A DNA stretch of 64,000 bases from an uncultured Gemmatimonadales bacterium (GTDB lineage: Bacteria > Gemmatimonadota > Gemmatimonadetes > Longimicrobiales > Gaopeijiaceae), in contig CAWELD010000003.1 in the NCBI GenBank assembly GCA_963809895.1, positions 2,464,001 through 2,528,000 of the forward strand, in the 5' to 3' direction. The notes under the pieces were generated by a model. That model saw only the letters and a list, made by a program, of their open reading frames with translations, was not told the DNA's origin and did no database searches. This document shows positions 41,440 through 61,865 of the stretch, piece by piece (position 1 is the first letter of the stretch; each line of letters begins with the position of its first letter). The position numbers and the translations under genes were made by a program.

Positions 41440-41507
41440 GGTACACCTCCAGCGGTACTGCATGAACCGTCCGTCGCCGGAGAAGCCCGACGACTGCCCT
41501 GGAGGAT

Positions 41508-41523: not shown

Positions 41524-41544
41524 GCCGCTGCCGGGAAAGCCGCG

Positions 41545-43047: not shown

Positions 43048-43151
43048 GTCATGGACTCCTGCGACAATGGCGGGGGGTGGTCGCCCCCCGCGACGAACTT
43101 CCACCTGCATGGACTACCGACGACCGCTCTGCAGGTTCGTCCTGGAACGAC

Positions 43152-45788
43152 TCACCCCGGGGTGAGTAGCACGCTGACCTTGGCCACCAGAATGTCCTGG
43201 CCCGGATCCCGGAGAGCGTCCAGGAAGGCGTCGGTGCCGACGCCCTCCATGCGGTCGCCGAAGCGCCAGCGGTTCTTCTGCCAGATGAGGAAGAGCGAGC
43301 TTCCCCGCCTCCATTCCCACCGGAAGACCGCCGTGGCGCGGAAGGACCGCACCCAGAAATCGTAGTTCTCCAGTCTGAAAACCGCATCCCCGTCGCTGAC
43401 CTCCCATGCCCCGTCGTCCAGGCGCGTCAGCGTGGACGAGCCCTCGCCGTAGAGCCGGAGCCGGCGCGAGCGGGGCGCCACCAGCTCGCCGGGCTCGTGG
43501 ACTCCTCCCGTGGAGATGAAGGGCTCGGCGTACAGGGTCAGGACCGCGTCGGGCGCGAAGGCGATGCGGCTTCGACCCTGGAGGAAGTACTCCTTCCGTT
43601 CCATCCTCGAGAAGACGTAGCGCGTGCCGAAGGTGGCTTCGGGGCCTCCGTCGACCGCGGCGAGAAAGAGCCGGGAGTCGTCGCCCAGTGATCCCCCCGC
43701 CAACAGCGAGAGCTCCACACGACGCCCGCTCTGGACCGTCACGCCTCCGCTGAGGCCCGAGCTCCATCCGTGGAACTCGTCCAGGAACCCGTCGGCCTGC
43801 AGGCTCCACCAGAATCCCCCGGTGTGGGCGCTTCCCATCTCGGCGTCGACCCACCAGGAGCGGGCCGTGCCCATGAGCGGGCCTCCACGAGTGAGATCGT
43901 CGGAGAGGGCGCGCAGGTTCATCCCCGCCTCGAGATAGGTCGTCCACAGGTTGGCCCAGGTGGCTGAGAAGAACGCTGACGGTGACGCCTGACGGCGCAG
44001 TCCCGCGAAGTTCCAACCGCCGGTGAAGCCCAGGCCCATGCCGTGGTTCCGGAGCAGGCCCCGGGAGTCCCGGATGTCCTTGCGGACCCCGACGCGGGCC
44101 TCGATGCGGTCGGCCCGGGTCTGACTGCCGGCATCACGGATGTCGAATCCGGGCGACGATGCCGTGGCCTGGAGGTCCCAGCGCCACTCCCCACCGCCCA
44201 CGCGGCCCGCCGTGAATCCGGCTGCCCAGCCCGACAGGTCGGTACGGGTGGAATCCAGCCGGACGTGATCCTGGTCCGGCCGTTGGAAGAAGTGGGTGGA
44301 GGACAGCTGGAGCCGGGTCATGGCGTCGGCGCTTCCCGTAACTCGACTGCCGCCCAGGAAGCCGGTCACTTCATAGCGACCGTCGGCGGCCCGGAGCACG
44401 AAGTCGGCTCCGCCGGCGAGGGCACGCCGGGGGATCAGCTGCTGCAGCCCGCCGCCATCGGCGAGAAAGCGCTCGACGCCGGTGGCCATGAGTCCGATCG
44501 CGGAACCCGACGGTCCGAGCTCCTGCTGCACGCGCCCCACCGCGAAGAGCGTGCTGGGAGCGACCTCGCTGCGGGCGCCCGCGCCAGGCTCAGGAACGGA
44601 CTCCTGGCCCGTCAGCGCGCTCAGGGCACCCACCGACAGCCCGTCGGGCATCCGTCCCGTGAGCTTGGCCCCGCCGATGATGCGCGCCGACTCCACTTCT
44701 TCGAAGACACCCTGACCACCCACATTCGGCACGGAGCCGATACGGCGCGAATAGAAGTAGTTGGGGCCTCGGGTGCGGAACAGCTCGCGGCCCTCGGTGA
44801 AGAAGGGCCTGCGCTCGGGAAAGAAGGTTTCGAAGGCGGTGAGGTTCACCCTCGCGGGGTCGGCCTCGACCTGTCCGAAGTCCGGATTGACCGTGGCCTC
44901 CAGCGTCAGGTTGGGCCCCAGACCCGCCTTCATGTCGCCGCCGAGCCGCGTGCTGTGGTCCGTGGTACCCGCCACCCCGTCCGCCGGATCGAGACGTGTG
45001 CCCCGTTCCAGGAGGTAGGGGACCAGCTCGATCCGGGACCCGGTCCGGATGTCGCGCAACCCGCGAAGGGCGCCGAAACGCGACACCCACCCGGTCTCCT
45101 CGTACGGCACGGCGACCCAGTACAGGTTGAGGAAGGTCGCCGGGTTCCAGCGCCGGACGTTCAAGCCCCACAGTTGCTGATCACCGGGCGAGAAGCGGAG
45201 CTGGCTGAAGGGGATGCGCATCTCGGCCGTCCACCCCTGGTCGTCGTGGGTCACCCGGGCGTCCCACACCGGGTTCCAGGAGTCGTCGCGCCAGCCCTCG
45301 TTGTCGCGGGCGTCCACGTAGTCGACGCGCACTCCCCCCACCGTCACGCCGAAGGTGAAGGCCGTGCGCCGGTCGCGGTACGTGTCCAGGGAGACGAGGA
45401 TGCGCTCGGTGTTGCCGGCCTCGTCGCGCCCGGCGAGCACCTGCCGGGGCCCCCCGTCCCGATCGGAGAGCATGCGAGCTCCCACGTAGAGGGCCTCGCC
45501 GTCATAGGCGAAGGCCACGGAGGTCTCGACGCGCGGTGCGAAGCTCCGGTCCTTGCCCTTCTGACGGAAGTCGTCGCGGAACTCCGCCCGACTCCATGCC
45601 TCTTCATCCAGCCTCCCGTCCACGGCGATGCTGCCCACCTGGACCCGCAGGACGGTCATCTCCTTCGCAGGAGCCACGCCGTCGACCGATCCCGACTCCT
45701 GCACAGCGGCCTGGGCCGGCGAGGACACACCGAGCACGCCCACGGCGACCCAGGACAGGACACCCAGGAACCGTCTCCGGATCGCCAT
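43152..45788 (-). CDS. CBM9-like + DUF5916 outer-membrane beta-barrel protein
   Basis: Signal peptide; IAVDGRLDEEAW, GWTAEMRIPFSQLRF, TVNPDFGQVEADP, FETFFPERRPFFTEG, FYSRRIG, TRGGP, RWEWRRGS. Confidence 0.85.
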   Translation of the reverse strand: MAIRRRFLGVLSWVAVGVLGVSSPAQAAVQESGSVDGVAPAKEMTVLRVQVGSIAVDGRLDEEAWSRAEFRDDFRQKGKDRSFAPRVETSVAFAYDGEALYVGARMLSDRDGGPRQVLAGRDEAGNTERILVSLDTYRDRRTAFTFGVTVGGVRVDYVDARDNEGWRDDSWNPVWDARVTHDDQGWTAEMRIPFSQLRFSPGDQQLWGLNVRRWNPATFLNLYWVAVPYEETGWVSRFGALRGLRDIRTGSRIELVPYLLERGTRLDPADGVAGTTDHSTRLGGDMKAGLGPNLTLEATVNPDFGQVEADPARVNLTAFETFFPERRPFFTEGRELFRTRGPNYFYSRRIGSVPNVGGQGVFEEVESARIIGGAKLTGRMPDGLSVGALSALTGQESVPEPGAGARSEVAPSTLFAVGRVQQELGPSGSAIGLMATGVERFLADGGGLQQLIPRRALAGGADFVLRAADGRYEVTGFLGGSRVTGSADAMTRLQLSSTHFFQRPDQDHVRLDSTRTDLSGWAAGFTAGRVGGGEWRWDLQATASSPGFDIRDAGSQTRADRIEARVGVRKDIRDSRGLLRNHGMGLGFTGGWNFAGLRRQASPSAFFSATWANLWTTYLEAGMNLRALSDDLTRGGPLMGTARSWWVDAEMGSAHTGGFWWSLQADGFLDEFHGWSSGLSGGVTVQSGRRVELSLLAGGSLGDDSRLFLAAVDGGPEATFGTRYVFSRMERKEYFLQGRSRIAFAPDAVLTLYAEPFISTGGVHEPGELVAPRSRRLRLYGEGSSTLTRLDDGAWEVSDGDAVFRLENYDFWVRSFRATAVFRWEWRRGSSLFLIWQKNRWRFGDRMEGVGTDAFLDALRDPGQDILVAKVSVLLTPG

Positions 45789-45790
45789 CG

Positions 45791-46843
45791 TCACGCTGCC
45801 AGCTCGTGTGCACATCGTCGGGCCTCCAGCAGCCAGTCGTTCTGGTGTTCACGCGGCGGAGTCCAATCCTTCGCCCAGCCGAGCCACTGCACCGCCTGCA
45901 ACAGCCGGCACATGGTGAGCTCGCGGTAGAACCCGATCCTGGAACGCCAGGTCATGCCCGCGGCTCGGGCCTCGGCGCGATATGCTTCCACCAGATCGGC
46001 GCGCGCCTCGGCGCCGAGCTCACCGGCGGTGAGCGCGGCCAGATCCAGGAGCCTGGGCCCGAAGCCGGCCATCTCCCAGTCCACGGGCCGGATGCATCCC
46101 CCCTCCCCTTCCACGAGGACGTTGGAGGGATAGAACTCGCCGTGGACGAAGACGGGATCGAGCTCCAGGACGGACTCGGCGGCGGCACGGTGCGCGTCGG
46201 CGATCTCGGCCAGGGCTTCGAGACGCTCGCGGGCCACGGCCGCCAGGGGCCCATCGACCTGCGTGCCGCCTCTGGCCAGCTGCACCGCCCTCCGAAACCA
46301 CCACCGGTGGAAGCGCCGATCGTGGGCGATGAGGGGCCCTCCGACGGCCGGCAGGCGCGCCATGTGGGCGTGGAAGCGAGCCAGCCACCGGGCCGCCTCC
46401 CTCCAGGCCCCGTGATCCCCCACCTCGGCGAGAGGCTCTCCGTGCACGGGCTCCAGAAAGAGCCAGTGGCGACCCCGGGCGCGATCCGAGACGATACCCA
46501 GGCAGCGGGGGGCACCCAGGGCGCGCGGCTGCAGGATGGTGCGATAGACCCAGGGCTCGCGGCCCGGATCCAGGATCCTCGAGGGCTTGGCTCGCAGGGC
46601 CAGGCTCCCCGGCACTTCCCGCGCCAGGTTCTTGAAGATCACCTGCAACGTGCGGCCGTCGTCCAGGGTCACCACGAGCTCCTCGATCCACCAGCTCGAA
46701 GCCCGGGCCACTGGTCGCCGGTCCACGCGATGGACCCGGGCGCCCGTGCGCACTTTCGCCACGATCCCGTCCAGGGCGCGCTCCAACGCCTCGGCATCGC
46801 TCATGACGCCCCGAATCGGGTCGGGCCGGCGCTCGCCGCTCAT
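45791..46843 (-). CDS. APH/choline-kinase-fold phosphotransferase
   Basis: VIFK, WLFLEPVHG, WLARFH, FVHGEFYPSNVLV, VDWEMAGFG; ATGA overlap with upstream gene. Confidence 0.85.
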   Translation of the reverse strand: MSGERRPDPIRGVMSDAEALERALDGIVAKVRTGARVHRVDRRPVARASSWWIEELVVTLDDGRTLQVIFKNLAREVPGSLALRAKPSRILDPGREPWVYRTILQPRALGAPRCLGIVSDRARGRHWLFLEPVHGEPLAEVGDHGAWREAARWLARFHAHMARLPAVGGPLIAHDRRFHRWWFRRAVQLARGGTQVDGPLAAVARERLEALAEIADAHRAAAESVLELDPVFVHGEFYPSNVLVEGEGGCIRPVDWEMAGFGPRLLDLAALTAGELGAEARADLVEAYRAEARAAGMTWRSRIGFYRELTMCRLLQAVQWLGWAKDWTPPREHQNDWLLEARRCAHELAA

Positions 46844-49269
46844 CCGCCCAGCTCGCCCATGAGCCTCTCCAGCACACGGTCCGCCGCCAGGTGCTCTTCG
46901 GCGACGCCCCGGGCGGCACGGGCGTGGCGCTCGTAGTCGGCCCGCACCCTGTGGACGCCGTCCACGGCCTCCTCCAGCGAGGTGAAGGGTACCAGGCCCC
47001 AGCCCGTGGGCAGATGGTCCGAGAACCCCGTGTCCTGCGCGAGCACGGGCCGGCCCGAGGCCAGATAGCAGGCGCTCCGGTCGCTGAACCACCCGGACCG
47101 CGACTGGACGTAGCCCGTCTTGGCCACACCGAGCTCGGCCGCCGAGCCCTGTACGAAGCGCCGATAGCGGACCGGATCCCCCGCGACCCGCCCCGGGTCC
47201 ACCAGGGACCAGCGGTTCTCCCGCAGTGCCCTGAGATCCTTCGTCTCCTCGGGGTGGATGGACAGGGCGAGCTCGAACCGGTCGCCGCTCTCACGCGGCA
47301 GGTCGACCAGACGGCGGAAGGCATGGGCTTTCTGGCCCAGCGTGCTCCCATTCCAGCGGATGGACCCGTATCCACGCCAGTTGGCCACCGTGGTCCACGC
47401 ATCCCGTGCGGGCTGCGCCCGGGCCGCCGGCCACTCCTCCAGCACGACCGGAGGAGCCGTCCGGATCCACTGCCGTCCCAGGGTCGGCACCGAGCACGCC
47501 GAAGTGCCCAGTGCCAGGCCCACGGTGACGAAGTGGGTGTGGCCGTCCAGACCCATGTCGACGCCTTCGACGTCCTGCCAGAGTTGGGTGAAGGCAGGGT
47601 CGAGGTCCACGTAGGCGCGCACCGGAATCCGACTCGCCAGCCTCGGCGACAGGACGCCCGACAGGTTCAGCAACAGCTCGGCCCGGTCGGCGACGCGCTC
47701 CAGGTCCGCACAGGAGAGCCCGACGGTCTGGCGGCTGTTCTCGAGAAGGAGCGTGGCCCGGCCTTCGAGCCCGAAGCGCTGCACCAGTCGTCGGAAGTAC
47801 CGGGCGTTCTCGGACCGCTCCAGGCGAGCGCCAGGGGGGCGGATCCGGTCCGTGCCGAGCTCCTCCACCAGGTGAACGTCGTGGCCCATGCGCAGCAGGC
47901 CCAGGACGTACTGGAGCACCGCCCAGGTCGCCCCGCCCTGTCCGGGCACACCGGCGACCATGCCACTCACGATCACCCTGCGACGGCCCGAGACGGTGCC
48001 GTTGCCGGGCGCGCGCCGGGCCTGCTCCGGCCCCTTGGGGTCATGGGACGGAGCACCGTTTCCGGAGTGCACGTCGCCGCCGGCTCCGGAGGGTGCCGCC
48101 GGCGCGGCGTGCGTGCCGGTGACGAGGGCCCGCTCGAGGAACCCGCTCAGCACCTTGCGCGCGTCGAAGTACTCCTGGGCGATGTGGCGAGCCGCCATCC
48201 GGTGGCGCTCGTAGTCGCGCACCACGTCTTCGGCTGCGCGCGCGGCGCTGCGCACGTCCTGGAAGGACAGGAGCCCCTCGCCCACGGGGATGCGGCGGCC
48301 GAAGCCCGTGTCCTGCACCACCACCGGGCGCCCGGTGGCCAGGTAACGGGCGGAACGGTCGCTGAACCACCCGCTGCGGGTATCCACGTAGATCCCTTGC
48401 GCCACAGACAACTCCGCCCCGGAGCCGCGCACGTAGTCCCGGAATTCCTCGGGGGTCGCCGCCACTCTCTTGGGATCGACGAGCTTCCAGCCGTGCCCCT
48501 GCAACATGCGCCTGTCCCGGTCGTCGTCGGGGTGGATGTCCAGCGCCACCTCGACGAGAACACCCACCTCTTCGGCCAGCCGAGCGAAGCGTCGAAACTC
48601 GTGGACCTTGAGTCCGAAGACGTGTCCGTCCGCTTCAACGGGCCCGTAGGACCCACGCCAACTGGCCAGCGTCGTGAAGCGCAGCTGCTCCGGGGGCTCG
48701 ACGGCCGGCCAGTCCTCCAGAACCACCGGTTGGCGTAGCGGGAGCCAACGGATGCCGCTGGTGGGGATGGGACACCCCGGCGTCCCCACGTTCTCCCCCA
48801 CGGTGAAGTGCACCTCGTGCTGATGGAGGCGCAGTCCCGTCTCACCGGCGGCGTGCCAGTATTGGGTGAACCCCGGATCGAGGTCCACGTAGGCCCGGCG
48901 GCGCACTCCTCGGAACACGGGGCGGTAGGACAGGTGTCCGCTGATGTTCACCAACAGGTCGGCCCCGGCGGCGAAGTCCATTACCGCGCCCAGGGGCAGT
49001 CCGGCGAGGTGCTCGCCTTGCGGAGTGATCAGGCTCGCCCCTTCGGCGAGCCCCCACCGCCGGGACACGGCGTCGAAGAAGGCGACGTGGGGACTCGAGG
49101 AGAGAGCGGCCGGATCATCGCCCACGCCCGTGACGGCCGGATCGAGCTCCTCGACGAAGAGCACCTCTGCGCCCAGGGACCGCAGTCCACGGACCCACGC
49201 CAGCCGGACCCATGCCTCTCCGCCGTAGGACGGCTTGTTCGCCAGCGCTCCCGCCACGACGATCTTCAT
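46840..49269 (-). CDS. Tandem two-domain atypical GT-B glycosyltransferase-like protein
   Basis: Two ~380-aa homologous domains (each GG..W, DLDP.FTQ, GWFSDRSA.YLA.GRPV..QDTGF) joined by a Gly/Pro/Ala linker. Confidence 0.8.
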   Translation of the reverse strand: MKIVVAGALANKPSYGGEAWVRLAWVRGLRSLGAEVLFVEELDPAVTGVGDDPAALSSSPHVAFFDAVSRRWGLAEGASLITPQGEHLAGLPLGAVMDFAAGADLLVNISGHLSYRPVFRGVRRRAYVDLDPGFTQYWHAAGETGLRLHQHEVHFTVGENVGTPGCPIPTSGIRWLPLRQPVVLEDWPAVEPPEQLRFTTLASWRGSYGPVEADGHVFGLKVHEFRRFARLAEEVGVLVEVALDIHPDDDRDRRMLQGHGWKLVDPKRVAATPEEFRDYVRGSGAELSVAQGIYVDTRSGWFSDRSARYLATGRPVVVQDTGFGRRIPVGEGLLSFQDVRSAARAAEDVVRDYERHRMAARHIAQEYFDARKVLSGFLERALVTGTHAAPAAPSGAGGDVHSGNGAPSHDPKGPEQARRAPGNGTVSGRRRVIVSGMVAGVPGQGGATWAVLQYVLGLLRMGHDVHLVEELGTDRIRPPGARLERSENARYFRRLVQRFGLEGRATLLLENSRQTVGLSCADLERVADRAELLLNLSGVLSPRLASRIPVRAYVDLDPAFTQLWQDVEGVDMGLDGHTHFVTVGLALGTSACSVPTLGRQWIRTAPPVVLEEWPAARAQPARDAWTTVANWRGYGSIRWNGSTLGQKAHAFRRLVDLPRESGDRFELALSIHPEETKDLRALRENRWSLVDPGRVAGDPVRYRRFVQGSAAELGVAKTGYVQSRSGWFSDRSACYLASGRPVLAQDTGFSDHLPTGWGLVPFTSLEEAVDGVHRVRADYERHARAARGVAEEHLAADRVLERLMGELGG

Positions 49270-50405
49270 GCCGACGCCTCCGTGGTGACGGCTTCGGCGA
49301 CCCGCGTGACGACGCGGTTCGCGTCCAGATGGCGCGCCGCCCAATCGCGCGCGGCCCGGGCGTGGCGACTCCAGTCGGCGTCCACGGTCCGCACCGCATC
49401 CACCGCTTCGTCCATGCCGGTGTAGGTCAGGAGGCCCAGACCGGTGTCCAGCCAGCCTGCCAGCCCCGTATCCTGCACCACCGCCGGGCGGCCGGCGGCC
49501 AGATAACAGGCGGTCCGGTCACTGAACCATCCGCTCCCGGTCTGCACGTACATGCCCTTGGCCACCGTGAACTCGGCGCGAGACAGACGCACATAGTCAC
49601 GGTAGTCGTCGGGCGTGGACGCCACGCGCTCGGGGGATTCCAGGTGCCAGCCGCCCTGAAGCAGCCTGAAGGCGTCCCGATCGTCCGGCTCGCCGATGTC
49701 CAGGGCGACTTCGAAGGAGAGGCCACTCTGTCTCGGAAGCGTGGCGAACCGCCGAAATTCGTGGACCCGCAGGCCGTAGGTGGTGCCCTCGTACACCACC
49801 GGGTCCCAGGGCCCGCGCCACGAGCCCACGCTGGTGAAGCGGGTGCCGGCATCGGGCGTCGGGCGCCACAGGTCCATGACCACCGGGGGCAGCGTGGGAA
49901 TCCAGCGCAGCCCGCAGTCGGGAATGCGACACGACGGCCGACCCACGTTGCCCCCGACGGTCAGGAAGGCGTCGTGGCCGACGAAGAGGTCGCACAGGCC
50001 CAGCGCCTTCCACATCTGCCCGAAGCCGGGGTCGATGTCCAGGAACACCCGTCGCCGGGCCCGGCCGAGGAGGTCCTCGTCCTCCAGATACCCCATGACG
50101 TTGAGCAGGAAGTCCGACGCGGCGAGACGCTCCCGGACGGCGGTGCGTCCGAGGCCCACCGGCTCCTCGTCCGGGCCCAGGTCCAGCGAATAGGAGTCCC
50201 CGAGTCCGAAGCCCTCCAGGATGTCCACGAAGCGCCGTACCGCGAGTGTGCCGCGCACCTCGGGACCGGGCTCCAGCCGATCCAGGAAGAGGACCTCCCA
50301 CCCGGCGTACCTGAAACCGAGTACCCACTGCAGGAGCGCCCAGGTGTGCCCGCCCCGGTCCGAGCGGCGGGCCAGGCCGCCCGCCACGACGACGGAGCCC
50401 CTCAT
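49266..50405 (-). CDS. Single-domain atypical GT-B glycosyltransferase-like protein
   Basis: GGHTWALLQW, DIDPGFGQ, GWFSDRTACYLAAGRPAVVQDTG; ATGA overlaps. Confidence 0.8.
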   Translation of the reverse strand: MRGSVVVAGGLARRSDRGGHTWALLQWVLGFRYAGWEVLFLDRLEPGPEVRGTLAVRRFVDILEGFGLGDSYSLDLGPDEEPVGLGRTAVRERLAASDFLLNVMGYLEDEDLLGRARRRVFLDIDPGFGQMWKALGLCDLFVGHDAFLTVGGNVGRPSCRIPDCGLRWIPTLPPVVMDLWRPTPDAGTRFTSVGSWRGPWDPVVYEGTTYGLRVHEFRRFATLPRQSGLSFEVALDIGEPDDRDAFRLLQGGWHLESPERVASTPDDYRDYVRLSRAEFTVAKGMYVQTGSGWFSDRTACYLAAGRPAVVQDTGLAGWLDTGLGLLTYTGMDEAVDAVRTVDADWSRHARAARDWAARHLDANRVVTRVAEAVTTEASA

Positions 50406-53808: not shown

Positions 53809-56800
53809 TTCGGCCCTCGCTCGGGCGTGGGGTTGATGCAGGACAGAGCGCCGAACAGCTCGGCCTCCAGGGCTTCGGCTTCGGCGACGACCTCCGGATC
53901 CGGCAGGTCGTGGCCCGGTGGCTCCGGCCTCGATCCGGAGCTGTTGATCCTCCGGCGCAGCGGAAGGAGGCAGTCCTCCGACCACGGTTCGCCGACGAAC
54001 TCCAGGCAACTCCTCACCACGGAGGCGGGCGAGGACACCAGGTCCCGGTGCAGCACCCGCAGGATGCGCGCCGGCCCCAGTGTCTCCTCGGCCTGAAGGC
54101 ACGCCCTCACGTGACGGACCCAGCGCACCCACGCCTCGGTGGCGGTGTGCGGCCGGCCGCCGATGTGATGGAAGGCTCGCAAGGAACGGACCACCGGCGC
54201 CGGCTCCCGCAGGAGATGGATGAAGCGAGCCTCGGGGAACAGCTCGGCGAGACCGTCGACGAAGAAGGAGTTCTCCGGAGTGCCGTCGACCCAGCGAGAC
54301 TTGGGATCGTCGGGAGAACGGGCCCGGGCGAAGACATTGTCCTGGGCCACCCGTCGCTCGGGCCAATCCCGGTGCGCCAGGACCAGGCCGTCCACCGTGC
54401 GGCCGAAGGAGCGCATGAAGGTGTCGCGATCGATGCCCTGTGCGCTGATCTGGGAGCGCTCGTCGCGAGACGTGCCCAGCTCGAACGCCTCTCGCAGTCC
54501 CTTGTGGAGGCGCCCGAACCACACGGTCTCCTCGAGGGGGTAGAGGTTCGGGTGCTGTCCCAGCGCCCAGGTGAGCACGCTGGTGCCGGAGCGGGGCGAG
54601 CCGATGATGAGCACCGGGCGCGGCTCCGGAGCCGGATCCCGGCCGTTCAGACGAAACAGACGAAGATCCTCGGTACGCATGATCTCCTCTCCCTCGCGGT
54701 CCAGGTGGACCCGAAGCCCGTCGTAGTGGTCCAGCCACCAGAAGGCGGGCTCGGGCAGCAGGAGGTAGTCGGCACCCCGGCGGCGGAGCGCCCGCAGATG
54801 AGAGACGGCTTCGGCATCGGTACCCGGGTAGAAGCCGGCCCACACGCCGTCGCCACGGTTCGGGAAGTGCCAGCCGGTCCGGCCGGACAGCCGCACGAGC
54901 TCCTCGTCGCCCCGACTGACCACCGCCACAGTGGACCCCGACGGGAGGCGCTGCTCGACGGTCTCCCGCACGCGCTCCACCAGCCTCCGGTAACGAGCGT
55001 CGGGACCCCGGCGCTCCCGCGTCCAGGTGCACCCCCACTTGGCTTCGAAGCGGCGGCGGTTCGCCTCGAAGAGCCGGCCGTAGCTTCCGTCGGCCACCAA
55101 CTCGCCGAACGAGGCCTCGCCCAGATGGTGGACCAGCACGTCCTCGGCGCACAGCAGACGGTAGCCCGCCGAGGTCAGGCGGCGGGAGTAGTCGTCGTCT
55201 TCGAAGAGCCCCCGGCCGAACTCCTCGTCCAGGGGGCCCACGCGTCGCCATGTCTCCCGGCGCAGCGCCAGACAGAAGAGGGCGAGCATGGCCGCCTCTC
55301 GTGCCTCACCCACCCGCTCCACCCGGCGCCGGCGTGCCAGCCTGAGGTACTCGCCGTAGGTGTCCGGCCGGTCGGCCACCTCCGCCTCGGTGCCGATGCG
55401 GTTGGTCACCGGGTTCACGGCCCCCACCTCGTCGTCGCGCAGGTGGACGAGGAGACCGTCGAGCCAACCCGGAGCGACGGCCGTGTCGTTGTTGAGGAAG
55501 ACCAGCACGTCGCCGAGGGCCGCCGCGGCGCCGACGTTGCAAGCGCGAGCGAACCCCTCGTTGGCGGGATTCAGGATCGGCCTCACCCGCCGGTCGTGCG
55601 CCGCCAACGCCCGCAGGTAGCCCGGCGTGCCGTCGCTGGATCCGTTGTCCACCACCACGACTTCGAAGGGCACGTCGGCCCCGTGCTCGAGAAGGCTCTC
55701 GAGACAGAGACGAGTCAGGGCCAGGTTGTCCCAGGTGACCACCACCACGCTGGCCGACGGTGTCACCGAGGCACCGTTTCGTGTGGTCGCCGCCGGGTCG
55801 CCACGCAACGCGGGCATCGCGCCGACGGCCGGCAGCGGTCGGTCCAGCAGCAACCGCTCGGTGGCGCCGTCCAGCCGCAGCGGTCGCCGGGAGCGTGGCT
55901 CGATGGCCAGGTCCAGGGGGACGGGCGGCAGGCCACCGAGCTCGGGGGCCGGCGACGGATGCGAGCGGCCCGGTCCCTCGACCCCCACGTCGGCCAGGAG
56001 CCGCGGCAGCACCACACGGTAGTCGAAGCACGCCCGTGCCACCTCGTGGGCGGCCCGGGACGCTGCCGCGTGGTCCGATTCGATGACCTCCAGCGCCGAC
56101 AGGATGTCGTCCATGTCCTGGAAGCCGAAGAGCCCCTGGCCCGTGGGCAGGACATGGCTGAAGCCGGTCTCCTGGGTGACCACGGGCCTGCCAGCGGCCA
56201 GATAGGTGGCGCTGCGGTCGCTGAACCAGCCGCTACGCAGGCGCACGTTCTGGTCCTTGGCCACGGTGAATTCACCCCTGGACCCGCGCAGGTACTCGCG
56301 GTAGGGCTCGAGCTCCAGCGAGAATTCCGACGCCTCCCGCACACGCCAGCCGTGGGACTCCAGCAGCGCGCGATCCGCGGGCTTGAAGCTGCTGAGCGCC
56401 AGCTCGAACTCGCGCCCGCAGCGCCCGGGAAGATCCAGGAACTTCCTGAACTCCCGGTCCTTGCTCCAGTGGTAGGTCTCGTGTCGGTAGCGGATCTCAC
56501 GGAACGGCTGGTGCCAATTCGCCACCGTCGTGTAGGCCGATCCCACCTCTGCCGTGGGCTCCCAGAAGTCCAGCACCACCGGCTGGCGGGTCGGACGCAG
56601 CTCGAAGCGATCCGAGACGGGGAGCCCGCAGTCGGCTCCCCCGTAGTTCTCGCCGAAGGTGAGCCATGCCCGGTGCGCCTCGAGGAACTCGTGCGTCTCC
56701 TGGCGATCCTGCCAGAGCTCGATCTCCAGCTGCACGGGATCGGTGCCGAGGAACACCAGCCGGTCGGTGGCGGCGTGCTCGGGCCGGGGCCGGGTGCCGC

Positions 56801-57149
56801 CGTGCAGGTTGAGCAGGAGGTCGGCAGTCCGATACGCCTCCAGGAGTCGGTCCAGGCTCATGCCGTAGCACGCGCCGTCGTCGTGCAGCGCGTGGTAGGC
56901 CCAGGCATCGCCCAGATCGAATGGTTCCAGGAGGCGGCGCAGGAACGCCGCGGCCCGGCGGGATCCGGGATCTCCGTCGCGGCGTGTGAACATGGAGGGC
57001 GTGCGCGCGTGGGCCTCCACGTACAGCACGTCCCAGCCCAGGCGCCGAAAGCCCACCAGGTAGTGCAGCGTCTGCCACAGCACCCCGGGCACGGGCATCT
57101 TGGTGATCATCCCCAGAAGAACGATCCGCCGGCCGCCACGGCGGTTCAT
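53805..57149 (-). CDS. Multidomain atypical GT-B + GT2 + unnamed domain + sulfotransferase
   Basis: N-terminal GWFSDRSATYLAAGRP domain; GT2 (VDNGSSD, FLNNDT, FEDDD); sulfotransferase 5'-PSB IIGSPRSGTS and FIHLLREP..VVRS. Confidence 0.88.
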   Translation of the reverse strand: MNRRGGRRIVLLGMITKMPVPGVLWQTLHYLVGFRRLGWDVLYVEAHARTPSMFTRRDGDPGSRRAAAFLRRLLEPFDLGDAWAYHALHDDGACYGMSLDRLLEAYRTADLLLNLHGGTRPRPEHAATDRLVFLGTDPVQLEIELWQDRQETHEFLEAHRAWLTFGENYGGADCGLPVSDRFELRPTRQPVVLDFWEPTAEVGSAYTTVANWHQPFREIRYRHETYHWSKDREFRKFLDLPGRCGREFELALSSFKPADRALLESHGWRVREASEFSLELEPYREYLRGSRGEFTVAKDQNVRLRSGWFSDRSATYLAAGRPVVTQETGFSHVLPTGQGLFGFQDMDDILSALEVIESDHAAASRAAHEVARACFDYRVVLPRLLADVGVEGPGRSHPSPAPELGGLPPVPLDLAIEPRSRRPLRLDGATERLLLDRPLPAVGAMPALRGDPAATTRNGASVTPSASVVVVTWDNLALTRLCLESLLEHGADVPFEVVVVDNGSSDGTPGYLRALAAHDRRVRPILNPANEGFARACNVGAAAALGDVLVFLNNDTAVAPGWLDGLLVHLRDDEVGAVNPVTNRIGTEAEVADRPDTYGEYLRLARRRRVERVGEAREAAMLALFCLALRRETWRRVGPLDEEFGRGLFEDDDYSRRLTSAGYRLLCAEDVLVHHLGEASFGELVADGSYGRLFEANRRRFEAKWGCTWTRERRGPDARYRRLVERVRETVEQRLPSGSTVAVVSRGDEELVRLSGRTGWHFPNRGDGVWAGFYPGTDAEAVSHLRALRRRGADYLLLPEPAFWWLDHYDGLRVHLDREGEEIMRTEDLRLFRLNGRDPAPEPRPVLIIGSPRSGTSVLTWALGQHPNLYPLEETVWFGRLHKGLREAFELGTSRDERSQISAQGIDRDTFMRSFGRTVDGLVLAHRDWPERRVAQDNVFARARSPDDPKSRWVDGTPENSFFVDGLAELFPEARFIHLLREPAPVVRSLRAFHHIGGRPHTATEAWVRWVRHVRACLQAEETLGPARILRVLHRDLVSSPASVVRSCLEFVGEPWSEDCLLPLRRRINSSGSRPEPPGHDLPDPEVVAEAEALEAELFGALSCINPTPERGPK

Positions 57150-58987
57150 GCGCCCCCCTGGCCCGAAACGCGCAGCAGCGGCGTGGCCTCCGCCCGCGGG
57201 CCATCGTCACCGTTCTCGGCTGGGCCGGCGGTCTGCGCCTCCCACAGCCGCCGGAAGAGCCCGTCGCGGGCCAGCAGCTCCTCGGGCAGACCCTGCTCCA
57301 CGATGCGACCCTCGTCCACGACCAGGATGCGGTCGGGATTGCGGATAGTGGACAGGCGGTGGGCGATCATGAAGGTGGTGCGGCCCACCATGAGCCGGTC
57401 CAACGCGTCGAGGATGACGCCCTCGGTGCGGGAGTCGATGGACGACGTGGGCTCGTCGAGGATCAGGATGGGGGCGTCCTTGAGGAACGCCCGGGCCACC
57501 GCGATGCGTTGGCGCTCACCGCCGGACAGCCCTACGCCCTTCTCGCCGATGTCCGTGTCGTAGCCGTCGGGGAGCGCCACGATGAAGTCGTGGGCGTTGG
57601 CCGCCCGCGCCGCAGCCTCCACCGCGTCCATATCCGCGTCCAGCCGCCCGTAACGGATGTTCTCGGCGATGGTCCCGGAGAAGAGCAGCGAATCCTGCAG
57701 CACGATGCTGATCTGGGCCCTGAGGGACTCCACCTCGAGTTCCCGCAGGTCGACGCCGTCGAGCAGCACGCGCCCGGCCCCCGGGTCGTAGAAGCGCGGC
57801 AGGAGGCTCACCAGGGTGCTCTTGCCCGCGCCGGTGGGCCCCACGATACCGACCACCTCGCCGGGCGCCACGTGGAAGGACACTCCCCGCAGCGTGTGAT
57901 CACGCCCGTCGTACGTGAAGGCGACGTCTTCGAAGGCGATGCCACCTTCCACCCGATCCAGGACGGTGGCCCCGGGGAGCGATCGGATCTGGGGCTCCGT
58001 GTCCAGCAGCTCGAAGGCCATCTCCAGGGCGATGAAACGCTCCTGCAGAGAGCCCACCGTGCTGGTGATGGTCTCCAGAGGCTTGTAGATGGAGGCGATG
58101 TAGCTGAGGACCACCAGAAGATCACCGCCGGTGAGCCGACCCTGGAGGATCTGGTAGACCCCGACGCCCAGCACCAACGCCGTGCCCGCGGCGGTGGCGG
58201 TGTTGACCACGAGAGAGAACGCGGTCTGACGCACGGTCACGCCCACGCGGGCCGTCACTGCACGTTCGCCCTGGTCCCTGAAGCGCCGGTACTCGTGATC
58301 CTCCCGCCCAAAGGCGAGGATCACCCGGATCATGGACACGGCCTCGTGGATGATGGAGAGGGACTCCCCCTCCATGTTCCGCACCTCGCGCAGGCGGGGT
58401 TGGATCCGCGACACGTAGTTCCCCACGGCCAGGTAGAGGAAGGGCACGACCGTGAGGGATAGGAGCGCCAGCAGGGGGTCGATGGTGTAGGTGATCCAGA
58501 ACATCCCCACCAACGTCAGCGCGCTCTGGACCATGGGGAGGATCGCCATGACCAGGCCCGCCGCCGAGTTCGCCTGGAAGTTGATGGCGTAGATGAGGGT
58601 GCCCGACCGCTTGCGATCGTGGTATGCGAGTGACAGCCGTTGGGCGTGGCGGAACAGGTCGCTACGCAGGTCCAGGACCATGCCCTGCGAAAGGCGGGTC
58701 TCCACGTAGCTGTTCACGACCTTGAGCCCGTTTCCCACCAGCGTGAGCCCGAATCCCCCGGCCACAACGGCGATCATGAGAAGCACACGGTCGTCGGCCA
58801 GGGGCCCGAGAACCGGCTGGAGGGGGCCCGGGAGAGGATGCGTGCTCAGCACGCTGTCGAAGAGGATCTTCAGCGGCCAGGGCTGCACGAGCGCCATGAG
58901 CGAAAGGGCGACCGTGATGGTCACCGTGATGGCGGCAGACACCCAGTAGGGCTTCAGGTAGACCAGTACGCGAGGCAGATAGCGCAT
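57146..58987 (-). CDS. ABC exporter (fused TMD-NBD, MsbA/PglK-like)
   Basis: QPWPLK, GPTGAGKST, LSGGERQR, LILDEPTSSID, IAHRLS. Confidence 0.92.
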   Translation of the reverse strand: MRYLPRVLVYLKPYWVSAAITVTITVALSLMALVQPWPLKILFDSVLSTHPLPGPLQPVLGPLADDRVLLMIAVVAGGFGLTLVGNGLKVVNSYVETRLSQGMVLDLRSDLFRHAQRLSLAYHDRKRSGTLIYAINFQANSAAGLVMAILPMVQSALTLVGMFWITYTIDPLLALLSLTVVPFLYLAVGNYVSRIQPRLREVRNMEGESLSIIHEAVSMIRVILAFGREDHEYRRFRDQGERAVTARVGVTVRQTAFSLVVNTATAAGTALVLGVGVYQILQGRLTGGDLLVVLSYIASIYKPLETITSTVGSLQERFIALEMAFELLDTEPQIRSLPGATVLDRVEGGIAFEDVAFTYDGRDHTLRGVSFHVAPGEVVGIVGPTGAGKSTLVSLLPRFYDPGAGRVLLDGVDLRELEVESLRAQISIVLQDSLLFSGTIAENIRYGRLDADMDAVEAAARAANAHDFIVALPDGYDTDIGEKGVGLSGGERQRIAVARAFLKDAPILILDEPTSSIDSRTEGVILDALDRLMVGRTTFMIAHRLSTIRNPDRILVVDEGRIVEQGLPEELLARDGLFRRLWEAQTAGPAENGDDGPRAEATPLLRVSGQGGA

Positions 58988-58988
58988 G

Positions 58989-61583
58989 TCAGCCCGCTGC
59001 CTGTAGCCAGGTGCGGCGCTGGACGGGAGCCGCGGGCGTCGGCTCCTCTCCCGACGGTCGCGCGTCCGCTTCGGCGGGATCGGCGAGCACGTCGTCCACG
59101 GCCCCGTGGACGGCCGCGCTCAGGGCGGCGGCGGCGGTCCCGGTCTCCCAGATCGCGCGCACCGCGCCGACCAGGGCGGTTCCACCGAGCAGGACCGCGA
59201 CTCCGGTGGCGCCATCGGCCAGCCCCCATAGTCCCAGCCCCCCGCCCAACACGACCAACGCCCAGGTCACGCCCCTGAGACGTGGCTCCAGCGCGAAGCG
59301 CAACACCTGTTGGCCCTGCTCGTGCCACTCGGCACAGCTCCGCAAGCGGACGGCGCCCATGGCGCCGCCCTCCACCTCCAGGTCCCAGCGATCCCAACCG
59401 TCGTCGCGGCGCACCACGCACCCCCAATCGGTGAGGGTCCGCTCCACCTGAGCCAGAAGACGCGGCAACGCCACCCCGTCGTCACGCCAGAATCTGAGCC
59501 GCATGGCACGGGGCCACAGGAAGCGCGTCGTCCGCGCCCGGGCACGCCACGGCACGAGCCCACGCAGCCAACGACCCTTGAGACGGGCCAGGGGCTGCAT
59601 CAGGTGAAGAAGTGCCGTCAGCCGCCGGTGGCGGATCTCATCCCGGGCGTCGGGGAACGGGCGTTGGAAGCGCGCTCGCGAGGCCCCCACCCAGGCCCGC
59701 ACAACCGTGGTGCCCGCGCCGACGACGAGGAGGGGTGCCGCTGCCAACAGCGGCGGCCAGGAGAGCCCGATGACCGACAGGACCGCCAGCACCGCGAGAA
59801 CCAGATACCATTCGGGCATGGCGGCGGCCTGCCACAACAGGCTGGGTCCCGGATCCTCGCGGTGCTGGAAGGGAGCCTGCCCCCAGGTGCCGCCGTAGAC
59901 CCTCGCTCGCTTGAACGGAAGCACGAGCGGGCCCTGCCCGTACACGCGGCCGCCCCAGGTCACGTGACCGACGACGTTGTATTTCTCGGGCCACTTGGCC
60001 TCCAGCAGGGCCTCGGCTGCGCCGTACCCGCACTGCTGCCGCCAGTAACCTCGCACGGTGCCCCTGGGCTGGTGCCACACCACGGCGCCGGGATTGAAGC
60101 CGATGCGCCACCCCCGCGCTTCGATGCGCCAGCACAGATCCACGTCGTCGCCCGCGACCCGGAAACGCGGGTCGAAGCCGCCGAGCTCCAGGAGCGCCGA
60201 ACGCCGAAAGGCCATGTTGCACCCTGGAATGTGCTCCGCCTCGCGATCCGTCCTCAGCACGTGGATGGGGCCGCCCGGGGCGTTGGCCACACACGCGCCC
60301 ACCATGTCCTGCCCGGGCGGGGGGATGTTGGGTCCGCCCACACCGACCACGTCCGACGACTCGAAGGTGCGCGCCAGGTGGGTCAGCCAGTCGGGATCCG
60401 GCCAGGCGTCGGCGTCGATGAACGCCACGATGTCACCGCGGGCCTCCTGGATGCCGGTGTTGCGCGCGCGGCTGAGCCCTCGGTTGCGCGTTCGGATGAG
60501 CCGCACGGGGTGGCGGACGGCGATGGACGCCGTGTCGTCGCTGGAACCGTCGTCGACGACGATGACCTCGAAGTCCGGATAGTCCAGGCGCGCGATCCCC
60601 CGGAGGCAGGCATCCAGCGTGTCGGCAGCATCGTAGGCGCACACGACCACGGAGATCCGCGGCCAGTCCACACCCTCCAGCGGATCCGGCTCCGCGAACG
60701 TGCGACTCACCGCGTGCAGCGCGGGCTTGGGGCTCCGATCCCGTCGCGTCAGGCCGAACTCCCAGTCCTCCACGTCGCGGCCACCGCGGTGCCACTCGTC
60801 GGTCCAAGCGAAGGCGAACGAACCGGCACACCCCGCCGTCTCCACGGCTCTCAGGTGACTCGACAGGATGCGAGCCTGCTCGGAGAGCCCGTTGCGCCGG
60901 CTGTCCAGGCCGAGCTCCGCCACCAGCAGGGGACGATCCGCCGCCAGGTTCTGAAGGCGGGCCAGATACGCGCTCAGTCGGGGCGTCGATTCCAGATAGA
61001 CGTTGAAGGACAGGAAATCCAGGAACGGAAGGTCCAGGTATTCCGTGGACGGGTAGTTGGCGTAGGTGACCAGCGCTTCCGGGTCGACCTCCTTCGCCGC
61101 TTCGAACAGCATGTGGATGTGACGCTCCACCCTGCGGCGGCCGGACCAGCGCACGATGGGCGCCGGCACCTCGTTCCCCACGGCGTACGCCAGGACCGCC
61201 TGATGCCCGCGGCAGCGGAGCACCCCGTCACGGATGCGGGCCTGGATGGTACGCCCCAGTCCCGGCTCGTCCAGGAAGGAGACGTGCTGCTCCCAGGGAA
61301 TCCCCACCAGGAGCCGGAGCCCTGCCTCGGCCGCTTGGTCCAGGAGCCACTCCGGCGGCACGGTGTAGGTGCGCACCGCGTTGAAGCCCGCGCGGACCAT
61401 GGCGTCGAAGTCCGAGGCGACCGTCGCCGGCTCAGGGAACGGCTCCCCGAAGCGTCCGGGCCGGAAGGTGCCGTAGGTGACCCCCCGAACGAGGAGCTTC
61501 CGCCCTCCGACGTAGATGAACTTGCCGTGGGCCCGTGGGCGGGCGTCGCCCTGCGCCGGGGCCCCCATGACGGCTACCGCCAT
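58989..61583 (-). CDS. Clan GH-A (GH2-like) TIM barrel fused to GT2 and membrane helices
   Basis: VRGVTYG, NAVRTY, YAVGNEVP (acid/base), LVAELGLDS (nucleophile), FAWTDEW; GT2 VVDDGSSD, FIDAD, GCNMAFR, GDDVD, QQCGYG; C-terminal TMs. Confidence 0.85.
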   Translation of the reverse strand: MAVAVMGAPAQGDARPRAHGKFIYVGGRKLLVRGVTYGTFRPGRFGEPFPEPATVASDFDAMVRAGFNAVRTYTVPPEWLLDQAAEAGLRLLVGIPWEQHVSFLDEPGLGRTIQARIRDGVLRCRGHQAVLAYAVGNEVPAPIVRWSGRRRVERHIHMLFEAAKEVDPEALVTYANYPSTEYLDLPFLDFLSFNVYLESTPRLSAYLARLQNLAADRPLLVAELGLDSRRNGLSEQARILSSHLRAVETAGCAGSFAFAWTDEWHRGGRDVEDWEFGLTRRDRSPKPALHAVSRTFAEPDPLEGVDWPRISVVVCAYDAADTLDACLRGIARLDYPDFEVIVVDDGSSDDTASIAVRHPVRLIRTRNRGLSRARNTGIQEARGDIVAFIDADAWPDPDWLTHLARTFESSDVVGVGGPNIPPPGQDMVGACVANAPGGPIHVLRTDREAEHIPGCNMAFRRSALLELGGFDPRFRVAGDDVDLCWRIEARGWRIGFNPGAVVWHQPRGTVRGYWRQQCGYGAAEALLEAKWPEKYNVVGHVTWGGRVYGQGPLVLPFKRARVYGGTWGQAPFQHREDPGPSLLWQAAAMPEWYLVLAVLAVLSVIGLSWPPLLAAAPLLVVGAGTTVVRAWVGASRARFQRPFPDARDEIRHRRLTALLHLMQPLARLKGRWLRGLVPWRARARTTRFLWPRAMRLRFWRDDGVALPRLLAQVERTLTDWGCVVRRDDGWDRWDLEVEGGAMGAVRLRSCAEWHEQGQQVLRFALEPRLRGVTWALVVLGGGLGLWGLADGATGVAVLLGGTALVGAVRAIWETGTAAAALSAAVHGAVDDVLADPAEADARPSGEEPTPAAPVQRRTWLQAAG

Positions 61584-61667: not shown

Positions 61668-61849
61668 CCGCGGCTCGCGACGGCATGACCGGGACGCCAC
61701 CGCTCTCGGGACACGAGTGACGGCGGTGGACTCCGCTGAGGCTGTCGTTCGGGATCGCTCGGGGGTGGGACCGGCTGGGGAGACATCCTCCCCTACGCTG
61801 CCACCGATGGGCCGGCGCCTTGGGCGCCGCTGCCGACCGGGCGAGCCGG

Positions 61850-61865
61850 TGGCACCGCTCCTGCA
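61850..61865 (+). promoter_or_regulatory. Sigma-54-like promoter of the rml operon
   Basis: Plus strand TGGCAC-CGCTC-CTGCA with correct GG-N10-GC spacing. Confidence 0.6.

Follow-up and report, generated by a model that had tools for sequence, protein, structure and literature searches.

Gene content and layout of the locus

The stretch of DNA analysed here, a window of 64,000 nucleotides from an uncultured Gemmatimonadales bacterium (assembly GCA_963809895.1, contig CAWELD010000003.1, positions 2,464,001 to 2,528,000), contains nine closely packed minus-strand genes, named g1 to g9, that span 43152-61583. They encode a membrane-bound fusion of a glycoside hydrolase (GH) with a glycosyltransferase (GT), an ATP-binding cassette (ABC) exporter, further GTs, a sulfotransferase, a kinase and a putative envelope protein (Table 1). 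The results described below support one dedicated operon for the synthesis, modification and export of a glycan. It represents an expanded form of a conserved three-part module that consists of g1, an MsbA-like ABC exporter and a CgeB-like glycosyltransferase of the GT-B fold.

Gene borders were taken from the list of open reading frames (ORFs), and the start codon closest to the stop of the preceding gene was chosen in each case. The nine genes had been described as coupled in the original prediction, which was made from the sequence alone, and this is borne out by a gap of 1 bp between g1 and g2 and seven consecutive 4-bp overlaps (ATGA or GTGA) thereafter; the overlap of g9 with g8 results from the GTG start of g9, to which an upstream ATG is the alternative. 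The G+C content at third codon positions (GC3) is 0.78-0.90 in all nine frames, high as expected of genuine genes in this genome (the G+C content of the window is ≈70%). The tight junctions and the high GC3 of all nine frames indicate a real gene layout that is not due to chance. Pfam and NCBIfam profile scans of the window ORFs with per-family cut-offs reproduced nearly all of the domain calls that had been made before.

A scan of 40500-46000 for promoters and terminators gave no more sites than shuffled sequence. Short contigs from one public RNA-library run match g1, g4, g5 and g6 with 99-100% identity, and one of them spans the g4/g5 junction. Because such a library may contain DNA, we do not count these contigs as evidence for transcription or habitat. 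Each of four public metagenome runs contained 7-13% of the words sampled from the region.

Table 1 Features of the operon and its surroundings. Positions refer to the window; aa, amino acids; GT2 and GT4, glycosyltransferase families 2 and 4; TM, transmembrane; TMD, TM domain; NBD, nucleotide-binding domain; GT-B* and X are described in the text.
Feature	Position	Strand	Length	Content
g1	58989-61583	-	864 aa	GH-A + GT2 + two TM hairpins
g2	57146-58987	-	613 aa	Fused TMD-NBD ABC exporter
g3	53805-57149	-	1114 aa	GT-B* + GT2 + X + sulfotransferase
g4	52072-53808	-	578 aa	N-terminal helical stretch + X + region aa 187-300 + GT2
g5	50402-52075	-	557 aa, GTG start	GT4-type GT-B + X
g6	49266-50405	-	379 aa	Single GT-B*, CgeB-like
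g7	46840-49269	-	809 aa	Tandem GT-B* + GT-B*
g8	45791-46843	-	350 aa	APH-fold, eukaryotic-like small-molecule or sugar kinase
g9	43152-45815 (ATG) or 45794 (GTG)	-	887/880 aa	CBM9-like region + DUF5916
X copy in g3	54624-55007	-		X (BLASTP)
X copy in g4	53251-53616	-		X (BLASTP)
X copy in g5	50522-50908	-		X (BLASTP)
Sulfotransfer_3 domain of g3	53976-54617	-		PF13469, 101.8 bits (cut-off 27)
g10	41545-43110	-	521 aa	HtrA-like trypsin_2 protease + weak DUF3108 (Pfam, NCBIfam)
g11	40996-41463	-	155 aa	Hydrophobic N-terminus; no family match
rmlD, rmlA, rmlC	61820-64000	+		Divergent dTDP-L-rhamnose genes (Pfam); rmlB just past the window

The glycanase-glycosyltransferase fusion g1

The g1 protein combines a clan GH-A TIM barrel (aa ≈15-300), a GT2 domain (aa ≈305-540) and two TM hairpins (aa 586-630 and 771-813). 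Pfam matches are Glyco_hydro_2_C (39.7 bits, aa 21-233) and Glycos_transf_2 (120.7 bits, aa 308-571). In an AlphaFold2 (AF2) model with a predicted local distance difference test (pLDDT) value of 80, a barrel of eight strands is joined to a GT-A domain that carries interface helices and to a pair of helical hairpins with a small α/β domain between them. According to Foldseek, the barrel is nearest to LaGH157 (E 4.5e-15) and GH158, followed by GH2 and GH5_18, and the GT2 part is nearest to PcManGT and soluble GT2s and distantly related to BcsA (TM-scores 0.23-0.27). A sequence search with the barrel likewise gave a GH158 enzyme as top PDB match (E 1.2e-11); its identity to GH157 and GH158 is 18-21%. 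In clan GH-A the acid/base glutamate follows strand β4 within an NE motif and the nucleophilic glutamate follows β7. Asn137-Glu138 of g1 is aligned with the NE acid/base motif of GH157 and GH158, and Glu223 with Glu224 of LaGH157, the residue mutated in PDB entry 9g4n. All three residues are invariant across 16 diverse g1 homologues. We therefore regard g1 as a membrane-anchored and presumably bifunctional enzyme in which the catalytic glutamates of the GH domain are predicted to be intact.

Hydropathy analysis detected neither a signal peptide nor a TM segment between the GH barrel and the GT2 domain. Since the GT2 domain depends on nucleotide sugars of the cytoplasm, the GH domain should face the cytoplasm as well, and both catalytic domains would thus be located on this side of the membrane. 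A BcsA-type channel is not evident, as the protein has just two C-terminal TM hairpins. A basic motif beside the membrane (aa 660-680) is strongly conserved, and the consensus YWRQQxGYG stands where processive synthases have the motif Q(Q/R)xRW (quoted in PMC10237404). The PgaC model of NCBIfam was matched with 103.8 bits at a cut-off of 422 and NodC with an E value of 2.9e-11, far under the family cut-off.

All 120 relatives among the matches listed in a g1 search, which covered up to 8000 candidates, are at least 53% identical to g1 and contain GT2 families, and all but three of these 120 (P0018, P0026 and P0027) have the GH2_C barrel (PF02836) in their precomputed Pfam lists. We found no characterised member of this fusion family, a core component of the module. 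One of the 120 (P0088, 1467 aa) unites g1 and the ABC exporter in a single chain and, if it is not an assembly artefact, supports a direct coupling of synthase and pump. Long shared frames in the 80 related loci described below were considered as candidate g1-ABC fusions but proved to be alternative frames that overlap in GC-rich DNA, and no fusion was found there.

The exporter g2

The g2 protein matches ABC_membrane (PF00664) and ABC_tran and is a fused half-transporter of type IV, similar to MsbA and NdvA. The NCBIfam model of MsbA gave 457.8 bits and did not reach its cut-off of 602; two glucan ABC models gave 406.7 bits (cut-off 733; E 1.5e-121) and 310.9 bits (cut-off 585.4). A second MsbA-like ABC gene is present at 17300-19828 (minus strand) and scores higher against the MsbA model (521 bits). 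As its product is only 38% identical to g2, we consider g2 a dedicated paralogue and not the housekeeping flippase. The longest ORF of this second gene overlaps a gene for an MprF-like lysyl-phosphatidylglycerol synthase (19150-21879, minus strand) by ≈680 nt, so that the resulting N-terminal extension of ≈230 aa is probably spurious. A gene for a GT9 heptosyltransferase is located at 11147-12316.

Glycosyltransferases and tailoring domains of g3 to g8

Four domains of the operon belong to a family that we designate GT-B*: the N-terminal 410 aa of g3, the g6 protein and both halves of g7 are paralogues. Pfam recognised them only marginally, with Glyco_trans_1_2 scores of 23.7 bits for g6 and 36.2 bits for the second half of g7 at a cut-off of 25. 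A profile of the family found no PDB chain below E 0.01, and Atlas look-ups for g6 returned only unnamed or generic ‘glycosyltransferase’ clusters. The AF2 model of g6, which was built on an alignment of 42 family members, has a pLDDT of 96, and its nearest Foldseek matches are the GT4-like retaining GT-B enzymes tll1591, PglA, MshA and BshA (E 5e-12 to 1e-8, TM-scores ≈0.6). By its modelled structure, GT-B* belongs to the GT-B fold as a divergent, GT4-like variant. The count of eight GT-like domains in the original prediction is correct since the GT-B* model matches such enzymes; it comprises the Pfam matches to GT2 and GT4 and the paralogous GT-B* domains. In g3, the GT-B* part is followed by a GT2 domain (aa 464-684), the X unit (aa 715-842) and a sulfotransferase (aa 845-1058). 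The g4 protein has X at aa 65-186 and a GT2 (Glycos_transf_2) at aa 303-525; the methyltransferase-like part formerly assigned to it is not supported by any Pfam match at E≤5 within aa 1-300. In g5, a GT4-type GT-B domain (aa ≈1-385; Glyco_trans_1_4, 81.8 bits) precedes X (aa 390-518).

X, which had been noticed as a repeated domain, was confirmed by BLASTP as a unit of ≈110 aa that is present once each in g3, g4 and g5 (E 1e-17 to 1e-27). An alignment of 18 copies revealed an invariant H-F-P, two single prolines, a WW pair and a leucine. X matched no Pfam family at E≤5, and a profile search of the PDB yielded matches of chance level only. In an X-restricted search, 39 of 40 relatives had X in one chain with a GT4, GT2, methyltransferase or sulfotransferase domain. 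We assume that X may act as a movable adaptor by which tailoring enzymes reach a shared glycan scaffold or the machinery of the core.

The sulfotransferase domain of g3 falls into Sulfotransfer_3 and is predicted to be of the 3'-phosphoadenosine-5'-phosphosulfate (PAPS) type. It carries the P-loop-like motif SPRSGTS, which we take to be the 5'-phosphosulfate-binding loop. Its relatives in the PDB are the CurM/OLS sulfotransferase and TPST, and the NCBIfam match to NoeE (E 5e-4) is far under the family cut-off. An adenosine-5'-phosphosulfate (APS) kinase is encoded in the genome and PAPS should therefore be available. The g8 protein is a member of the APH family (63.8 bits, cut-off 23.2) and reached no NCBIfam equivalog. 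In the original prediction, these domains were taken to indicate a product, either an oligosaccharide or a glycolipid, that would be both sulfated and phosphorylated.

The g9 protein and a possible outer-membrane step

The g9 protein had been described as a CBM9/DUF5916 barrel with a role in export. The DUF5916 assignment stands (128 bits, cut-off 22.6), but the CBM9_1 match remains below threshold (16.9 bits, cut-off 23.4). In the Atlas clusters nearest to g9, DUF5916 is present in 100% and CBM9_1 in 43-51% of the members. The hydrophobic N-terminus resembles a signal peptide and ends in AQA. An export role of g9 itself is weakly founded: ≈11 DUF5916 paralogues, often with a CBM9-like region and 780-920 aa in length, are scattered in the genome (e.g. 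L119:6252-8942, L120:6327-8906 and L121:7205-9961), and six others, at five loci, adjoin unrelated genes such as those for LptF/G, an ABC-F protein or a TRAP transporter. We conclude that g9 belongs to a general envelope protein family and was recruited to the operon. The DUF5916 paralogues look like a large family of envelope proteins in the host lineage.

Through its overlap with g8, g9 is coupled to this gene in translation. DUF5916 recurs in seven of the 80 related loci (Gemmatimonadota, Acidobacteriota and Myxococcota). In two diderm loci, one from Acidobacteriota and one from Bacteroidota, g1 and the ABC gene are separated by the gene for a protein with CarboxypepD_reg and an outer-membrane β-barrel (OMP_b-brl_4 or OMP_b-brl_3; L048:12405-15176 and L055:12602-15217). 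The type of outer-membrane barrel that serves the module may therefore vary among diderms.

A conserved core with variable accessories

Relatives of g1 were collected with two conserved peptide patterns from contigs of one genome per species; the patterns matched at least 600 stretches, of which at least 594 encode such a relative. Synteny was analysed in the best 80 of these at least 594 loci, many of them truncated; the ABC and GT-B* counts were restricted to loci with enough downstream sequence (62 for ABC and, with at least 8 kb, 42 for GT-B*). The 80 loci represent more than 15 phyla (Gemmatimonadota, Acidobacteriota, Chloroflexota, Actinomycetota, Bacteroidota, Planctomycetota, Nitrospirota, Pseudomonadota, Myxococcota, Chlorobiota and others, among them one metagenome-assembled genome of Thermoplasmata), diderm and monoderm alike, and their g1 proteins are 45-59% identical across phyla. 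An ABC exporter gene follows g1 on the same strand within 1 kb in 46 of 62 loci and is present anywhere in the locus in 54; a GT-B* gene, often in two to four copies, was found in 40 of 42.

The remaining gene content varies. Custom profiles detected APH kinases in 28 of the 80 loci, YdjC deacetylases in 16, paired hexapeptide acetyltransferases in 15, X in 10, RimK-like ATP-grasp proteins in seven and sulfotransferases in three. Further families came from Pfam scans of 59 downstream ORFs without assignment (25 loci), namely methyltransferases, pyruvyl transferases, DegT, PIG-L, an acyltransferase and one PMT_2 enzyme of the GT-C type. Synteny in other genomes is thus conserved for the combination of g1, ABC exporter and GT-B*, and the idea of a nine-gene system has to be narrowed accordingly: the dedicated glycan operon persists, but only these three components form a conserved core. 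Full-text searches, with subscription-only literature outside their scope, found no paper that describes the g1 family, GT-B*, X, DUF5916 or the triad.

The large differences in accessory content, together with the reassortment and inter-phylum transfer apparent in the g1 tree (see below), could be taken to mean that the operon is nothing but a chance run of unrelated GT and transporter genes on one strand. We give hardly any credence to this explanation: it is difficult to reconcile with seven 4-bp overlaps in series, with the order g1-ABC-GT-B* in most of the 80 loci and with a genome of another family (G029) that retains nearly the full order from g1 to g9.

Distribution and evolutionary history

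In genome G029, g1 and the ABC gene are followed by GT-B*, a sulfotransferase, genes with X, three copies of GT-B*, APH and DUF5916; the contig stops inside the DUF5916 gene. Judging by the coordinates and the length of the contig, the G029 locus and locus L101 of the 80 are apparently the same and were treated as one. At E≤1e-30 the g1 barrel was detected in 28 of 401 genomes of a phylum sample, host genome included, and in 16 of 147 genera; none of five genomes of the window's own genus matched. A search with g7 gave no match in 19 genomes of the same genus and matches in three of 40 relatives searched. The g1 tree is star-like with mixed phyla, e.g. a sequence from Acidobacteriota pairs with one from Chloroflexota at 100% support, which points to frequent transfer and reassortment. 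An ‘X-type clade’ was considered on this tree and rejected because the label is not clustered (nine changes; 192 of 500 shuffles were as low). A tblastn search of a plasmid collection with g1 gave no match. Two tandem g1 copies are present on a contig of a metagenome-assembled genome of the archaeal group Thermoplasmata (L088:18-2420 and 3793-6267) and also in a genome of the Gemmatimonadota sample (G244:C165:18306-22102); the archaeal copies could be due to inter-domain transfer or to a binning error.

Neither RmlD nor g10 was detected in five congeners at E≤1e-30, and these genomes gave no DNA match to 36.5-44 kb of the window or to the rml genes; DNA similarity to them restarts ≈20 bp past the rmlB stop. 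Since the operon, g10, g11, three plus-strand ORFs and the rml operon are all missing from these genomes, they presumably constitute one island, which appears to be strain-specific and ≈30 kb in size. The three plus-strand ORFs (36243-37406, 37604-39454 and 39354-40874) have coding-like GC3 and belong to no Pfam or NCBIfam family.

Neighbouring genes and missing pathway components

The divergent rml genes had been recognised before and are present as described, with rmlB just beyond the window; a γ-glutamyltranspeptidase gene and then MacAB-type genes follow. A functional link between rml and the operon received mixed support. RmlD and the cluster are jointly missing from the five congeners, but rml is not a conserved partner, with only three weak matches in the 80 loci. 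Co-inheritance in the island is the sole basis of the idea that dTDP-rhamnose is used. On the other side, g10 starts 41 bp downstream of g9 and g11 another 81 bp after g10. The g10 gene, which is possibly co-transcribed with the operon, and g11 are uncertain members of it.

Wzx/Wzy, Wzm/Wzt and Wza/Wzc families and the priming phosphoglycosyltransferase (PGT), whose absence had been noted, were also absent from our scans, which covered the GC3-passing ORFs of the window except 6296-6994 (minus strand) and the 19 kb beyond 64000, where wzx/wzy or wzm/wzt partners might have been expected. All four Bac_transf PGT matches in the host genome lie on a different contig (C10), and there is a single Glycos_transf_4 (MraY-like) gene. 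No homologue of the PGT domains of the host genome was found in the 80 related loci and no PGT among the 59 additional ORFs from 25 of them; ligase, oligosaccharyltransferase and polymerase families were likewise absent from the scanned ORFs (window, 19 kb beyond and related loci).

Three further observations concern the rest of the window. A minus-strand gene at 22520-24835 encodes a response-regulator receiver domain fused to PglZ and adjoins a large, duplicated MacB/FtsX permease gene (24265-27402). Pairs of PadR and MacB/FtsX genes recur around the window (L009, L119 and L120). An operon for a multisubunit cation/proton antiporter of the Mrp/Mnh type at 27488-35050 (plus strand) shows no more than weak DNA similarity to the five congeners.

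Comparison with known glycan pathways

The operon had been proposed to match none of the Wzy-dependent, Wzm/Wzt- or KpsMT-dependent and synthase-dependent pathways. Our results agree with this, as the canonical gene sets are found neither in the operon nor beside it. The Wzx and Wzy families are absent from the nine genes, the scanned window ORFs and the following 19 kb. The exporter is a fused half-transporter, and no ABC-2 permease of the Wzm/Wzt or KpsMT type was found in or near the operon. In synthase-dependent pathways the GT2 domain is part of a multi-TM channel with a Q(Q/R)xRW motif and works with a co-polymerase or porin partner; g1, with its two hairpins, its YWRQQxGYG consensus and its low PgaC and BcsA scores, does not belong to the BcsA, Alg8, PgaC and HAS type.

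In Nod-factor (lipochitooligosaccharide) synthesis, a membrane-bound GT2 (NodC) that produces a short β-glycan in the cytoplasm is combined with cytoplasmic tailoring enzymes for deacetylation, PAPS-dependent sulfation, acetylation and methylation (NodB, NodH/NoeE, NodL and NodS) and ABC export by NodIJ. Sister loci of the operon resemble this arrangement in having YdjC or PIG-L proteins, hexapeptide acetyltransferases, methyltransferases and sulfotransferases. However, the operon lacks a NodA-type acyltransferase, its exporter is of the MsbA-like type IV and not a NodIJ-like ABC-2 transporter, it has a fused GH domain and several GT-B enzymes, and its matches to NodC and NoeE are below the cut-offs. 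The Cgs enzymes (ChvB/NdvB) of Agrobacterium, Brucella and Sinorhizobium polymerise a β-glucan at the membrane and release or cyclise it by a built-in GH-type transglycosylase, and the product is moved to the periplasm by the fused TMD-NBD exporter ChvA/NdvA/Cgt. The operon shares with this system a predicted GH-linked membrane synthase that acts in the cytoplasm and a fused TMD-NBD exporter that matches the glucan ABC model. It differs in that GT2 and GH157/158-like domains take the place of GT84 and GH94, in its seven additional GT domains, the sulfotransferase and the kinase, and in the GT-B* partner, which has no counterpart in the Cgs system; since the best glucan ABC score is well below its cut-off, g2 is not an NdvA equivalog.

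Those members of GH157 and GH158 whose structures have been solved are secreted degradative enzymes. In fold, NE motif and nucleophilic glutamate, the g1 barrel resembles these endo-β-1,3-glucanases (PDB entries 9fz9, 9g4n and 9g5g as well as 9oro and 9p25), whose structures represent, by their titles, stand-alone enzymes with laminari- or mixed-linkage oligosaccharides, whereas the g1 domain is fused to a GT2 and predicted to be cytoplasmic. A fusion of similar logic is the NdvB cyclic β-1,3-glucan synthase of pseudomonads and Bradyrhizobium, which has GH17 and GT2 in one polypeptide; according to PMC10237404, GH17 follows a signal peptide and in models occupies the periplasmic space over a multi-TM channel similar to that of BcsA, and the GT2 domain is proposed to make β-1,3-glucan that the GH domain cuts or cyclises. 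Like NdvB, g1 joins a clan GH-A barrel, a GT2 domain and membrane helices in a single chain. Unlike the NdvB described there, it has no signal peptide and no GH17 match in Pfam, its barrel is GH157/158-like and it ends in two C-terminal hairpins. The ABC exporter is a near-constant neighbour of g1; a text search of PMC10237404 gave no occurrence of ‘ABC transporter’ or ‘NdvA’. The operon is not a member of the Cgs, NdvB or Nod-factor systems because in each case a defining feature is lacking.

A related question is how novel the operon is. Its gene set matches no canonical pathway, as had been claimed, but its general logic has precedents in Cgs/NdvA, PglK/Wzk and NdvB. Both Cgs/NdvA and PglK/Wzk combine assembly in the cytoplasm with export by an MsbA-type transporter; what is new are the parts and their combination.

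The Wzk/PglK pathways (O-antigen of Helicobacter and N-glycan of Campylobacter) complete the glycan in the cytoplasm and use a single fused ABC half-transporter instead of Wzx/Wzy or Wzm/Wzt, and they require a priming PGT plus a ligase or an oligosaccharyltransferase. The operon, with several cytoplasmic GTs and a single fused half-transporter, may therefore be read as a pathway of this type: a heteroglycan linked to polyprenyl-(P)P would be primed by g1 or by a PGT encoded elsewhere, extended to its full size in the cytoplasm by the eight GT domains, decorated with sulfate and phosphate, flipped by g2 and transferred to an acceptor to give a product similar to an O-antigen, a capsule or a wall glycan. 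The position of g2 nearest to MsbA-type lipid flippases, the layout of GT2 and TM hairpins in g1, as in DPMS, ArnC and PcManGT, and its conserved basic motif near the membrane are compatible with this. So are the O-antigen and capsule tailoring genes of related loci (DegT, pyruvyl transferases, acetyltransferases and the PMT_2 enzyme), the PGT matches on contig C10, the adjacent rml genes and the label ‘O-antigen biosynthesis protein’ that JGI has given to some g1 homologues. It is opposed by the lack of a PGT in the scanned ORFs of the window, the 19 kb beyond and the 80 loci, by the lack of a ligase, oligosaccharyltransferase or polymerase, and by a PglK score of g2 of 159 bits against a cut-off of 1000. 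Moreover, a predicted intact, cytoplasmic endo-glycanase fused to the GT2 would have no role in such a pathway, and the cross-phylum identity of g1 is unusually high, since serotype-type glycan enzymes are usually less conserved. We consider a lipid-linked heteroglycan of this kind a serious but rather doubtful alternative.

Mechanistic model

The scheme that we tentatively prefer, and that in its full form comes near to being probable without reaching it, is the assembly, decoration and export of a glycan that is free of a carrier. The GT2 domain of g1 would polymerise a β-linked backbone at the inner face of the membrane, and the retaining GH157/158-like domain would cut, release or cyclise it. 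The product would be carrier-free because the GH domain acts on the chain in this way, following the logic of Cgs and NdvB. A β-1,3-glucan-like backbone is the best guess since GH157 and GH158 are the nearest GH families. The four GT-B* domains, the two further GT2s and the GT4 may then add branches, possibly with rhamnose provided by the rml genes, and X may recruit the tailoring enzymes of g3, g4 and g5 to a common scaffold or machinery. The PAPS-type sulfotransferase and the APH-fold kinase would add sulfate and phosphate in the cytoplasm. A dimer of g2 would export the finished glycan across the inner membrane, and g9 may bind it or pass it on at the outer membrane.

Several points weigh against this scheme. 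The β-1,3 specificity is a guess, given an identity to GH157 and GH158 of just 18-21%, and YdjC and PIG-L in sister loci give a hint at N-acetylglucosamine rather than glucose. In g1, RQQxGY replaces Q(Q/R)xRW. Polyprenyl-phosphate glycosyltransferases, of which DPMS and ArnC are among the PDB matches of g1, likewise have TM hairpins C-terminal to a GT2 domain, and pumps of the MsbA/PglK type usually carry lipid-linked cargo; the present data do not distinguish a free from a lipid-linked glycan. The g1-ABC fusion is a single case, and X does not form a cluster on the g1 tree. The role of g9 is weakened by its many paralogues and by the occurrence of DUF5916 in so few g1 loci, and expression is represented by short contigs of one RNA library that are possibly derived from DNA.

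The MsbA-like exporter, a membrane-anchored g1 with tailoring enzymes that are all soluble and cytoplasmic, the occurrence of the module in diderm and monoderm phyla and weak g1 matches to HpnI and CruG, which are lipid glycosyltransferases, would also agree with a complex glycolipid. Here, g1 would transfer sugar to a lipid of the membrane (diacylglycerol, polyprenol or another isoprenoid), a sulfated and phosphorylated oligosaccharide head group would be built by the soluble GTs, g2 would flip the glycolipid and g9 would help to place it in the outer membrane. We regard this as quite improbable: the HpnI and CruG matches are far under the cut-offs (28-35 bits vs 310-600), the operon has no acyltransferase or lipid-synthesis gene, the fused endo-glycanase is left without explanation and eight GT domains are a large number for a head group.

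Within the carrier-free scheme that we prefer, a more far-reaching possibility is an export route that has not been recognised so far, in which a scaffold made by a GT2-hydrolase fusion, possibly cyclic, is tailored by X-tagged enzymes and passed to an MsbA-type pump coupled to the synthase, yielding a soluble, decorated oligosaccharide. Such an oligosaccharide could serve in signalling or be periplasmic and osmo-protective, and the core of the route would be present in more than 15 phyla. We see this as an attractive but unlikely reading.

If a carrier-free, tailored oligosaccharide is indeed the product, the operon would add a further principle of assembly to those of the Wzy, ABC-2 and synthase pathways, and a function would be assigned to three large families without a characterised member, namely the g1 fusion, GT-B* and X. 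The version with a sulfotransferase would point to sulfated glycans in bacteria beyond the cyanobacterial and rhizobial examples. The core is present in lineages of soil, sediment and freshwater, from Actinomycetota to Bacteroidota (at least 594 stretches). Its carriers include the cultured strains Nibrella saemangeumensis JCM 17927 and Segetibacter aerophilus NBRC 106135, so that the question of its product is directly testable.

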